Assembly (NCBI GenBank): GCA_964016885.1
Contig: OZ024742.1
Coordinates: 179,614,001-179,678,000 of the forward strand
Reading direction: 5' to 3'
DNA: 64,000 nucleotides
Source of the DNA: Eledone cirrhosa
Lineage: Eukaryota
Part shown: positions 6,277 to 60,390 of the stretch, one piece after another
How positions within the stretch are numbered: the stretch's first letter is position 1
How the letters are laid out: each line of letters begins with the position of its first letter
Made by a program: the position numbers and the translations under genes
The notes under the pieces: model-generated
The model's input: the letters and a program-made list of their open reading frames with translations, nothing else
What the model was told of the DNA's origin: nothing
Databases searched by the model: none

Positions 6277-6607
6277 AATGGTAGCTATGATGCTTCCATA
6301 GGCGGTATGCCAGTTGGGCACTCTATGTTTTTACAGAGCAGAGTGTGATATAATATAAAACGAAAAATCAGTGATGCATCTTGACTCAATTTATTGTGTG
6401 TTACAATTGTTTCGCCAACAGACAGCTCGAGACGCGATCATTGTATGGATCTGTCTAATTCTAGAACTGCAGGTTCGTCGGACACAGTTCTAGAATCAGA
6501 CAGATCCATACAATGATCGTGTCTCGAGCTCTCTGCCGACGAAACAATTGTAACACACAATAAATTGAGTCCAGATGCATCACTGATTTTTCGTTTTATA
6601 TTATATA
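6277..6607 (-). mobile_element. Fold-back + tail element with HHR-like motif (family A)
   Basis: About 120-bp inverted arms (6348-6607) with a ~70-bp unpaired tail on the left; minus strand reads tgtgt-CCGACGA-61 nt-GAAAC-AATT-GTA-acaca; flanked by (TA)n; related to 32036-32425. Confidence 0.75.
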
Positions 6608-7119
6608 TATACATATATATATAAAACCTCTCTCTCTCTCTCTCTCTCTCTCTGTATATATATATATATATATATATATATATACTGACATGGCTTTAAA
6701 AAGGAGGCTGTTTGCATAATTGCAAACGAATCGAATATTATTATTAATATTCAAAAAGCTCAGATTATATTTATTGTATTCAGACATATAGAATAATAAT
6801 TTTTTTAAATTTATTATAATTTATATATATATCAATGTATATATATATATATATATATATATATATATATATATATATATATATATATATATATATATAT
6901 ATATATATATATATATATATATATTGATATATATATAAATTATAATAAATTAAAAAAAATTATTATTCTATATGTCTGAATACAATAAATATAATCTGAG
7001 CTTTTTGAATATTAATAATAATATTCGATTCGTTTGCAATTATGCAAACAGCCTCCTTTTTAAAGCCTTGTCAGTAGAATGAGTCCCCTCATTCTTGCTC
7101 TTGTGTTGGCATGTAAACA

Positions 7120-7169
7120 GAACTGCAGACACTAATGTTTCTGGGTATCACCCTTCATCAGTGCAGTTC
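7120..7169 (-). ncRNA. Type I hammerhead ribozyme
   Basis: gaactgca-CTGATGA-aggg tgata ccca-GAAA-ca ttag tg-TC-tgcagttc: 8-bp stem I (further extended by aacag/ctgtt and gttggca/tgccaac), intact core, GUC cleavage triplet. Confidence 0.85.
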
Positions 7170-7458
7170 ACTGTTCCCTTGCCAACTGTCAGAGCTAGTG
7201 AAAATATATATTTTCTAAAATATACAGTGACTGATCCACCTGATTTGCATACTAGCTGACTGGCTGATCAGTCAGATCTGCATATTAGCAGATCCACTGA
7301 TCAGCCAGATTTGCATATCAGCAGACAGGCCAGTCAATTTCCTGTATACGAGCGATTAATGGCCGGCTTTGCCATATTAAAAAAAAAAAAAAAATATCAC
7401 TCTACAAAGCTGAATACAATAAATGTAATCTGAGTTTTTCGAATATTAAAATATTAAT

Positions 7459-7647
7459 AATTGTTTCTACTTTAGGCACAAGGCCAGCAATTACCCAGTT
7501 CATTACTGGTACTTTATTTTATCGACACCGTAAGGATGAAAGGCAAAGTTAACCTCGGCGGGATTTGAACTCAGATCGTAAAGGGACGTAACTATGCTGG
7601 AAAGCATGGCGTCCGACCCTCTACTGATACTGCCAATTCACCGCCCT
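7459..7647 (-). mobile_element. tRNA-type SINE
   Basis: Reverse complement of the 9515-9702 SINE; B box gagttcaaatccc; target duplication ttaaaatattaataa on both sides. Confidence 0.9.
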
Positions 7648-8066
7648 TAAAATATTAATAATAATATTCGATTCGTTTGCAATTATGCCAACAGCCTCTT
7701 TTTTAAAGCCATGTCAGTAGAATGAGCCCCTCATTCTAGCTCTTGCGTTAGCATGTAAACAGAACTGCAGGCACTAATGTTTCTGGGTATTATCCTTCAC
7801 CTGTGGGTATGGTTATACCATCTTTCCTTAAATTTAGATCAAGTGGCATCTATATAGTTATACGACTTACCATTAGTTTCAACAATGCACTAGATTACGG
7901 TCAAGTCATTTATTATTTAACGGGCAACATAGACTGTTCTTACAATTACAATTCTTTATGTTATTATTTGATGATAGAGCTCTACTATTAAGGTGTATGC
8001 TATTATTATTGTTTATGCTATTATCAATATTACTATTGTTAGTGTTGGGGGTTATTTCTATTTGAT

Positions 8067-8550
8067 TCATCCGTTGGATGTGTAATGTCAATGTACGTGA
8101 ACGACCAAGCATGGATGAGTTAAGAGAAAAACTGTGTATAAGAGGGATAATTTGTAGTGTGCGGGTGAGAAGACTGCGATGGTATGGACATGTGATGCGC
8201 ATAGAGGATGACCTCAGGGTAAAGAAGTGCCAAGAAATGCCAGTAGAAGGAAGATGGAGTAGAAGAAGACCACGAAAAATATGGGCGGAGGTGGAGAAAG
8301 CGGACTTCAGATTGCTGAAGCTCACGGAAAAGATGACGAAACCGTGACAAGTGGAGAGATACTGTGCTGAATAGGACCCGTTTTAGATATTACTAGATTT
8401 TTAATAGACATACTATCAAACTATCATACTCAACAACTATGAATATAGCCCAAAATATAGCAAAAATTACTAATCATCATCATCATCATTTTACGTCCAC
8501 TTTTCCCTGCAAGCAGGGAAAAGTGGACGTAAAATGATGATGATGATGAT
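8067..8550 (+). mobile_element. RTE LINE 3' fragment nested in the Penelope-like element
   Basis: RWMCNV..LREKL..RRLRWYGHVMR..RRRPRKIW; tail gtggacgtaaaa(TGA)n; TGATT shared at both junctions. Confidence 0.88.
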
Positions 8551-57680: not shown

Positions 57681-58061
57681 TATATATATATATATATATA
57701 TATATATATATATATATAATCCCTATCGAGCCCTCTTCGGATTTTAGTCTTCACATTTATTATTATTACTATATATATATATATATATATATATATATAT
57801 ATATATATATATATATATATATATATATATATATATATACATATACACATATATATATATATATATATAGAGTTTGTAGAGTTTTTTTCAGAATGTATTT
57901 GACTGCTATTTCTTGTAAATAAACATTCACTTCCATCCTGACGTCACTAGCCCCGTTTTTTCCTCATGTGCTTTTTCATAAATACACATGAAGGCGAACT
58001 AGCCAGTTTTAGAATTCCCTTTTTCGGATTATACTACTGTGAGAGCCCTGGTTTCTGTTGA

Positions 58062-58142
58062 GCTCTGCTGATGAATGAAATCCAACCGTGACCATCTCCA
58101 CTGAAAGTTTTCATGAAATAGTCTTTTAAGACTATACAGAGC
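58062..58142 (+). ncRNA. Type I hammerhead ribozyme (unit 1)
   Basis: gctctg-CTGATGA-atgaaa..tttcat-GAAA-tagtctt tt aagacta-TA-cagagc; predicted cleavage after A58136. Confidence 0.9.
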
Positions 58143-58690
58143 ATTTGATGTTATTCCAAATTGAAGGATAAGTGTTTCAAACTGTATTTTATCATGAGTT
58201 AAAGGTCTATAGATTTTTCCCTGGATTTTACTAAATTCTGTGGATGAATTTATATCCTGATTCTCTTTTGAGATGAGTTTGAGTTATTTTTCCTAAATCT
58301 TTCGTTAACTACTTTTCCCATCTTGACGTTATAGTCGCATATATGTTATAGAATGCCGTTAGCTTCTTGCTAAAACAATCTCTATACCTCTCATTTATAT
58401 TTATACTCGGATTCTTTTCCTAGAGTGCTTAAACTATCTGTGACTAATCCCGGTTTTTTTCATAAAAACTGTGATAATTATTGCTATTTTGCTGAACTCC
58501 TTTGTAGAGTTTTTTTTCAGAATGTATTTGACTGCTATTTCTTGTAAATAAACATTCACTTCCATCCTGACGTCACTAGCCCCGTTTTTTCCTCATGTGC
58601 TTTTTCATAAATACACATGAAGGCGAACTAGCCAGTTTTAGAATTCCCTTTTTCGGATTATACTACTGTGAGAGCCCTGGTTTCTGTTGA

Positions 58691-58771
58691 GCTCTGCTGA
58701 TGAATGAAATCCAACCGTGACCATCTCCACTGAAAGTTTTCATGAAATAGTCTTTTAAGACTATACAGAGC
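58691..58771 (+). ncRNA. Type I hammerhead ribozyme (unit 2)
   Basis: Identical to 58062-58142, 629 nt downstream. Confidence 0.9.
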
Positions 58772-59151
58772 ATTTGATGTTATTCCAAATTGAAGGATAA
58801 GTGTTTCAAACTGTATTTTATCATGAGTTAAAGGTCTATAGATTTTTCCCTGGATTTTACTAAATTCTGTGGATGAATTTATATCCTGATTCTCTTTTGA
58901 GATGAGTTTGAGTTATTTTTCCTAAATCTTTCGTTAACTACTTTTCCCATCTTGACGTTATAGTCGCATATATGTTATAGAATGCCGTTAGCTTCTTGCT
59001 AAAACAATCTCTATACCTCTCATTTATATATATATATATATATATATATATATATATATATATATATATATATATATATATATATATATATATATATATA
59101 TATATATATATATATATATAGAGAGAGAGAGAGAGAGAGAGAGAGAGAGAG

Positions 59152-60390
59152 ATTTTGAGTATATGTTGGTTGTATACCAACACCTCAATATGCAGATTGG
59201 AGCACTCGACGAAGTGCGCAGGTTGGTTTGGTTACTCCGGAGTAATGTAAAATAAAATAAAATAAATAAGTCAAATGTTTAAAATTTAGCTTCGTTTATT
59301 ACTGCTATATATATTTTTCGGTGACAGCCATCCTTGGCTGTGACCTCTTCAGGCAGTCCGAATTGGTGTGCTATAGACAAGTACATATGTTGTTGAGGTG
59401 TACAACTTTGTCAATACTCTGATATGCCCAGTTCCTGGTTGGGTTGTTATTTCACTGAGGAACTGGAATCATATGAATTCAAACAAACGAATTTCAGTGT
59501 CAAAGGGCCTCTTCTCCTCTCATTGGTCAGTTGTTAGAACATTCCTCATTCAAAAGTCTATAGAAATTCGTTCTGAGGCAAGCCAATCTGTAGTTGTTGT
59601 TCTTGTTATTGTTAGATACATCTGACCTCAATTCTTGTGTTGGTAGTGTTGTTATTGTTGGAGATAGCTAAAAAAAATTGATAAAGTGGTATAAGGAATA
59701 AGATGGTAAAGGAACAAAATAGCAAAAAAATGTCAAACTTCCCATTGGTCAGTTTTGAGAGCATTCCCCAGTCCGAAGTCTATAGAAATTCTTTCTGGGG
59801 TGAGGCTCGCTGTAGTGTTTGTGTTTGCTATTGTTAAGTACATCTGACCTCTACCCTTATGTTGGTAGTGTTGTTGGTGTTGTGGTCAGCTTATGTCTAT
59901 ATTTTCAGTATGCAGATTGGAGCACTCGACGAAGTGCGCAGGTTGGTTTGGTTACTCCGGAGTACTGTAAAATAAAATAAGTAAGTCAAATATTTAAAAT
60001 TTGGCTTCGTTTATTACTGCTTCGGTGACAACCGTCTTTGGCTGTGACCTCTTCAGGCAGTCCGAATTGGTGTGGTAGAGACGGGTACACATGTTGTTGA
60101 GGTGTTTAACTCCGTCAATACTCCGATATGCCCAGTTCCTGGTTGGGTTGTTATTTCTCCGAGGAACTGAAATCATATGAATTCGAACAAACGAATTTCA
60201 GCGTCAAAGGACACCCTCTCCTGCCATTGGTCAGTTGTGAGAACATTCCTCAGTCAAAAGTCTATAGAAATTCTTTCTGAGGCGAGGCAATCTGTAGTGG
60301 TTGTTTTTGTTAAGTACAGCTGACCTCCTCCCTTATGTTGGTAGTGGTGTTGGTGTTGGGGTCAGCTTAAGTCCGGCTGCTGCTATTTTT
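59152..60390 (-). mobile_element. Family C partial tandem array (720-bp spacing) with two HHR-like motifs
   Basis: tgcagattggagcactcgac at 59191 and 59911; HHR at about 59301-59357 (two extra A) and about 60016-60061 (stem III deleted); same terminus actcaaaatc as 57680. Confidence 0.8.

Follow-up and report, generated by a model that had tools for sequence, protein, structure and literature searches.

What kind of element leaves hammerhead ribozymes beside (TA)n microsatellites, and what machinery places them there? The question is raised by a 64,000-nt stretch of the Eledone cirrhosa genome (contig OZ024742.1, positions 179,614,001 to 179,678,000), hereafter the window. An original prediction, made from the sequence of the window, had described its hammerhead motifs as a guild of non-autonomous ribozyme retroelements sharing one TA-targeting helper. 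The families carrying the motifs are here designated A-J, letters coined in this analysis. It is probable that the hammerheads belong to the terminal repeats of several families of Penelope-like elements (PLEs), mostly of the Hydra clade, and to three families of retrozymes, all ending at (TA)n, and that a Penelope-type endonuclease and reverse transcriptase (RT) inserted them by target-primed copying. The finding is mostly explained by known types of elements, and its parts as such were already known; comparisons with published work refer to the accessible portions of the papers cited.

Identification of hammerhead motifs

A scan of the window with Rfam gave 55 matches up to E=10 with no hammerhead among them, and a type I descriptor was used instead. 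In its strict form the descriptor comprised exact CUGANGA and GAAA boxes, an NUH site, a stem I of at least 5 bp and at most 80 nt between the boxes, and chance was controlled with 100 dinucleotide block shuffles of the window. Nine strict motifs were found, against a mean of 0.04 and a maximum of 1 in the shuffles: 7120-7169(-), 12416-12500(+), 15154-15233(-), 32278-32375(+) with its mirror 32154-32249(-), 57478-57532(+) with its mirror 57140-57194(-), 58062-58142(+) and 58691-58771(+). Intact type I hammerheads at the predicted places, in numbers above chance, were thus confirmed as real, while their self-cleavage is predicted. Tolerating one mismatch in stem I raised the count to 11 (0.21 in shuffles) by adding 32625-32694 and 35373-35461, of which the latter was placed in no family and is possibly a chance match. 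With one core substitution tolerated there were 14 motifs (0.95 in shuffles), three of them outside any family.

The individual assignments of the original prediction held in part. From its list of intact or near-intact motifs, the nine strict ones stood, as did the motif at 32624 with its one mismatch, but the motif at 6397 has the core change U4C, the one at 23695 a private U4A together with an over-long stem II, and the one at 59301 a stem III longer by 2 nt. Four of the motifs called degenerate were indeed damaged or partial: the one near 60016 is without stem III, the one at 56795 has a private G5A, the one near 25850 has lost the pairing of both stem III and stem I, and near 13800 only the 3' half is present, at a foldback junction. 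The motif near 17110, by contrast, has the usual form of its own family (I).

Copies were searched genome-wide for eight families (A, B, C, D, E, F, G and I), and the samples are the best matches per family, which lean towards young and complete copies. Stem I sequences varied between families, and the pairing held within each. Per anchor occurrence, the canonical core was found in 44/45 cases for A, 57/58 for B, 25/32 for C, 15/25 for D, 15/22 for E and 13/36 for F. Family G scored 0/28 occurrences with the descriptor, most likely because its stem II probably exceeds the 80-nt limit; counted directly, its cores read CTGATGA in 21 and CTGACGA in 1 of 26. Minimum-energy folding gave the exact hammerhead three-way junction for B and the junction, or nearly so, for A and E. 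In single-sequence folding of D, C and I the hammerhead was not favoured (z of -1.96, -1.31 and 0.10, respectively).

Non-coding tandem families

In the window, family B is represented by 1.8 head-to-tail units of 629 nt at 57873-59024(+), lying between two TA tracts and containing the hammerheads 58062-58142 and 58691-58771, and by an older copy of 1.15 units and 91% identity at 14901-15625(-), with the hammerhead 15154-15233 and its 3' end on the TA tract 14861-14900. Family D, with a non-coding monomer of about 440 nt, occupies 6683-7445(-) with the hammerhead 7120-7169; a second fragment (6685-6821) stands tail to tail with this copy across the same TA tract, and further fragments are found at 7651-7805(-), with only the 3' half of a hammerhead, and at 25475-25647. 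A non-coding monomer of about 540 nt defines family E at 12046-12659(+), where the hammerhead 12416-12500 has a long stem III, and its relative E' at 25848-26346(-) has a decayed hammerhead near 25850-25911.

Genome-wide, the B monomer measured 628-629 nt and gave 97 matches at 39 scored places, the best of 2019 candidates, with identities of 94-100%, nearly all of them at least 98%. The arrays consist of 2-9 units, of which the first is cut at a variable point and the last ends at one fixed base. The older families D and E, whose monomers measure about 440 nt and about 515-540 nt, show about 90% identity and occur as partial tandems of more than one unit. The longest ATG frames are 43 aa in B, 27 aa in D and 67 aa in E, and no Hydra endonuclease match was found upstream at any of 50 overlapping B loci. 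In contigs from four of six sequencing runs only the head-to-tail joint was visible. As judged from their genomic copies, B, D and E are non-LTR (long terminal repeat) retrozymes, i.e., non-coding tandem units with one type I hammerhead each, like those described earlier (PMC7229834; bioRxiv 10.64898/2026.07.22.740005). Cervera and de la Pena (2020, PMC7229834) described tandem retrozymes of metazoans together with their circles and proposed a PLE as the helper, and retrozymes with demonstrated circular RNA were reported by Li, Clavereau and Pollet (2026, bioRxiv 10.64898/2026.07.22.740005), whereas the present data are genome sequence alone. Both papers propose PLE mobilisers and circle-templated tandem cDNA. 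The monomers here are 440-630 nt long, compared with 170-400 in the former paper and 51-972 in the latter. The fixed 3' end on (TA)n and the variants private to single arrays, described below, appear in the accessible parts of neither.

Two features of B bear on its template. Firstly, 49 full units differed by a mean of 2.0 changes in 60 within-array pairs and by 7.5 in 1116 between-array pairs, and 8 of 21 arrays had a variant that all units covering the site shared and that the other sampled arrays lacked; six of these eight variants are substitutions. Secondly, the predicted cut, after positions 58136 and 58765 in the window, is 259 nt upstream of the 3' end, which excludes a linear cut monomer as the template of copies with more than one unit and calls for a circle or an uncut multimer. 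Rolling-circle copying of an RNA circle is consistent with the fixed 3' end, with 5' ends that vary, with TA on either side and with the array-wide variants. Our tentative reading, with a chance that falls a little short of even, is that B is an active ribozyme RNA circle copied repeatedly into (TA)n by a Hydra RT, so that each array would be the record of one circle.

An alternative without cutting or circles, in which the arrays of B, D and E arose by uncut linear read-through of older arrays or by local tandem amplification, is quite conceivable, though we would not favour it. None of 41 B 5' ends (one duplicated pair included) lies at the predicted cut, which fits re-ligated circles and equally well an uncut template, and within-array identity is also expected from local tandem amplification. 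Moreover, only 21 arrays were compared among about 2000 first-look candidates, and source arrays may be unsampled. One B array (L291, G000:C1:89092300-89096800) has variants shared by units 2 and 4 and by units 3 and 5, a two-unit period that suggests a dimeric template or block duplication. In Xenopus, eight of nine retrozyme dimers remained uncleaved in vitro, according to the available text (bioRxiv 10.64898/2026.07.22.740005). On the other hand, the nearly invariant canonical core of B and its stable stem III mean that multimers are predicted to be cut, and in three arrays (L289, L293 and L298) the private variants extend into the truncated first unit.

The ribozyme cut itself, considered as the 5' boundary of B, was ruled out by the same 41 ends. 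Seven of these ends fall at monomer positions 347-354 (about 58742-58749 in the window), a truncation hotspot on the 5' side of stem III.

Insertion at TA tracts

A (TA)5 tract was present within 300 nt downstream of 14/17 window motifs, compared with 13.6% of positions, although mirrors and tandem copies are not independent in this count. In the genome samples (TA)4 started no more than 12 nt from the 3' end in 24/24 copies of A, 20/20 of B, 24/24 of C, 20/24 of G and 24/29 of I, against a background of 3.0% of window positions, and the predicted docking at (TA)n was thereby borne out. TA was also found at 25/30 variable 5' junctions of family B, so that it acts as a target and not as a tail. 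The opposite view, that (TA)n is a slipped tail made by the element or a later expansion, is very improbable: the element ends are themselves TA-like and TA tracts are frequent in the window, but the B junctions speak against it, the same tracts host nested unrelated families, and a (TA)n preference of Hydra elements is already published (PMC8557442).

Coding parents of the PLE families

Family A is present in the window as a foldback 3' end at 57089-57680(+), which carries the hammerheads 57478-57532(+) and 57140-57194(-) and has TA on both sides, and as an older partial tandem copy at 59153-60800(-), with an approximate 5' boundary and the hammerheads near 59301 and near 60016. Longer genomic copies of A extend into an endonuclease frame. 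A protein search of the genome with the endonuclease gave 51,922 first-look candidates, a figure that is not a copy number; the best 150 were scored, and four long-frame loci were examined in full. Two of them, L133 and L134, contain open frames of 894 and 893 aa with RT and GIY-YIG domains; a 3' region of 1.3 kb, in which the A hammerhead lies, comes after the frame, and window positions 57361-57680 are 97.5% identical to the 3' end of L133. The A unit is about 4.2 kb long, including a 1.3-kb 3' untranslated region (UTR), and copies among the best matches are 99-100% identical.

The 894-aa frame has YRDD at 353 and YIG at 788, in a C-terminal GIY-YIG domain. The definition of Hydra (Craig et al. 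2021, PMC8557442) comprises RWK, DKT, a CxCX5C linker, CxxC and CxH, with neither CX2-5CxxC nor CCHH. All five of the former motifs are present in the family A protein; a motif scan of it found no CX2-5CxxC, and no CCHH was seen by eye in the sequence. Pfam gave a weak GIY-YIG match (E=0.0019) on a fragment and none with the whole protein. As judged by protein motifs that agree with the published definition, A is a Hydra PLE; its likeness to Hydra-1_Obim was assessed by eye. Assignment of the coding families to Neptune was rejected because the protein motifs match the Hydra definition instead.

A Hydra-type endonuclease was found upstream, in either orientation, at 7/19 loci of A, 8/24 of G, 4/19 of F, 4/29 of I and 1/24 of C. 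For C, 12/12 loci retrieved by protein carry the C 3' UTR after the endonuclease, and two of them reach the hammerhead. In C, F, G and I a Hydra-type linker and endonuclease precede the hammerhead. The window copies of A (57478/59301), C (32278), F (32624), G (23695) and I (17110) are, on this genomic evidence, 5'-truncated 3' ends of coding Hydra-clade PLEs. Their window positions are 32030-32420(-) for the foldback of the older family C, with the hammerheads 32154-32249(-) and 32278-32375(+) and 63 nt between the core boxes; 32584-32772(-) for the old family F, with 32625-32694 and its stem I mismatch; 23293-24039(+) for G, with 23695-23811 and its private U4A; and 17065-17269 for the foldback of I. 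A further foldback at 6277-6606(-), C', is 70% like C and has the hammerhead 6397-6486 with U4C.

Family H belongs to a non-Hydra PLE. In its 3' end at 56185-57037(+), a minimal hammerhead lies near 56790-56835, and positions 56185-56490 are a broken remnant of a GIY-YIG domain that is Neptune-like rather than Hydra-type; a related fragment lies at 5860-6100(-). The frames at L220 and L247 show, by eye, a CX2-5CxxC linker and a CCHH endonuclease, and both loci hold an H-type hammerhead.

The prediction of several unrelated families with a Penelope connection thus stands, with a Hydra endonuclease upstream of five families. That all motifs are non-autonomous elements sharing one helper is highly unlikely: the monomers of B, D and E are tandem and non-coding, as a guild of this kind would have it, and the window copies are all short and TA-docked, but five of the eight families (A, C, F, G and I) reach Hydra coding sequence in longer copies, which for A is a refutation by intact full-length copies, and H holds its GIY-YIG remnant inside the window.

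The A elements agree with the published Hydra clade in the C-terminal GIY-YIG, the protein motifs, the hammerhead near the 3' end and the insertion in (TA)n; canonical hammerheads and almost exclusive insertion in (TA)n are reported for Hydra elements (PMC8557442). They also share 5' truncation, an inverted 5' copy and a one-sided tail with PLEs in that paper. The published Hydra families are few and generally below 3 kb, whereas here the families number at least five and a unit measures about 4.2 kb. Tails are here about 75-170 nt long, the core boxes are separated by as much as about 80 nt, and U4A is fixed in one family. The suggestion that the elements had been overlooked fails for the Hydra part, since Hydra-1_Obim from Octopus bimaculoides was published, in the supplement, with its hammerhead and (TA)n preference (PMC8557442). 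Our literature search for hammerheads in octopus, which covered few subscription journals, gave nothing beyond Craig et al., and a 2026 repeat annotation of Octopus vulgaris lists 31 recently active Penelope-like families without using the words ribozyme or Hydra in its accessible text. The present data indicate that, in an animal genome of 3 Gb, Hydra elements can make up a large share and have been active recently.

Foldbacks, tails and a candidate mechanism

The 97-nt tail that follows the terminal repeat of family A (57584-57680) is identical to the 5' leader of the element itself; at L133 and L135 the tail sequence runs on into the start codon. The RNA template was therefore tandem or circular and contained two TA-like words for priming. 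An inverted arm was found in 21/25 A copies, collected with a query biased to foldbacks, and the arms stop at the nearer TA-like word in 21/21 foldbacks of A, 10/11 of C and 4/4 of G. We infer that foldbacks are two cDNAs, one primed from each strand of (TA)n, which is self-complementary. Cervera and de la Pena (2014, PMC4209133) described PLEs with hammerheads in their terminal repeats, and reported single copies that are truncated as well as pairs on opposite strands. As in that paper, stem III is weak and palindromic (A, C, F and G) and most copies are single and truncated; its opposite-strand pairs, 100-700 bp apart, are of the same kind as those found here. The stable stem III of 7-9 bp in B and E differs from the minimal PLE hammerheads of that study.

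A mechanism can be proposed in which the GIY-YIG domain would nick (TA)n, and the freed 3' end, paired with a TA-like word that follows the ribozyme at a distance of 50-260 nt, would prime cDNA. Most cDNAs would end early, leaving only the ribozyme-bearing end, and from a nick in the other strand another cDNA could be primed at the nearer of the TA-like words, giving foldbacks. Tandem transcripts of B, D and E would be cut by their hammerheads and closed into circles, which the Hydra enzyme might copy in trans for more than one round. The young family A would be the best-dated candidate enzyme for B. Among their best matches A and B are both 99-100% identical, and this similarity makes A a best-dated candidate helper only. 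Mobilisation of retrozymes by Penelope-like enzymes via circular RNA was proposed before (PMC7229834; PMC4209133).

Several points weigh against such a partnership. An opposite-strand piece was found in 1/42 B insertions, compared with the inverted arms of A, so the footprints differ. B, D and E gave no alignable sequence against the ends of A, C, F, G, H and I at word size 7; the idea of one shared helper thus finds no support in the element ends, and the pLTR homology reported for other retrozymes (bioRxiv 10.64898/2026.07.22.740005) was not detected against these ends. A helper for B, D and E is suggested by target and age only, and H, which is Neptune-like and also TA-ending, could be a helper too. 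Adjacency to TA was less frequent in D (7/19), F (5/19) and E (11/18, one of 19 being unscored); in many of the copies of these families that lack it, the sequence continues into a tail or a further unit. Upstream endonuclease matches at 1/19 loci for each of D and E are read here as probable neighbours. Finally, cleavage, RNA and circles of B, D and E are predictions from the genome.

New in this material is a genomic footprint linking retrozymes to TA-primed copying, together with intact candidate enzymes. A young non-coding family whose insertion footprint is sharp and whose target is simple occurs here in the same genome as intact candidate helpers. Craig et al. (PMC8557442) named an in vitro PLE system as the next task, and if the circle reading of B is true, a single species could supply what is needed to reconstitute in vitro both the proposed partnership of PLE and retrozyme and the twin priming of Penelope.

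Core variant of family I

The base U4 of the hammerhead core is conserved. In family I the hammerhead-shaped motif, at 17084-17136(-) in the window, has U4A throughout the family. Copies were gathered with downstream sequence only, as an earlier query that included the foldback junction was biased. The anchor was preceded by an intact stem I and CAGAAGA in 25/44 occurrences, and in 21/29 of the incidental ones, and no copy passed the descriptor with a canonical core. Either the family is successful despite a weakened ribozyme, or U4A is a variant that works. The core variant reported in PMC4209133 is U3-A8, and our literature search for a U4A hammerhead, in which few subscription journals were covered, found no description. 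If the circle reading of B is true, family I would add a natural U4A hammerhead.

Other features of the window

Family J consists of two short foldbacks, 13683-13830 and 14324-14469 (within 13683-14469), neither of which holds more than the 3' half of a hammerhead. Other foldbacks that lack a complete hammerhead were found at 12899-13124, 13234-13527, 14543-14740, 16897-16980, 17731-17842 and 55856-56047; most of these six adjoin TA tracts, several have a one-sided tail, and they are probably shorter PLE ends. Long perfect inverted repeats at 8384-8639 and 38027-38365 are not TA-docked and give sub-threshold matches to microRNA families.

A Ty3/gypsy-type LTR retrotransposon at 17867-23292, with LTRs 99.6% identical and stops interrupting its gag and pol frames, sits between an inverted G piece (17294-17327) and the family G copy. 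Two broken relics at 1032-5306 and 38712-42357 are what we take, by their motifs, to be Helitron-like Rep/helicase elements. A 95-bp tandem repeat at 42805-43113 includes two sub-threshold Rfam matches to the histone 3' stem-loop. Outside the window, a 1142-aa open frame in L101 (309-3734, minus strand) belongs to an unrelated non-LTR retrotransposon.

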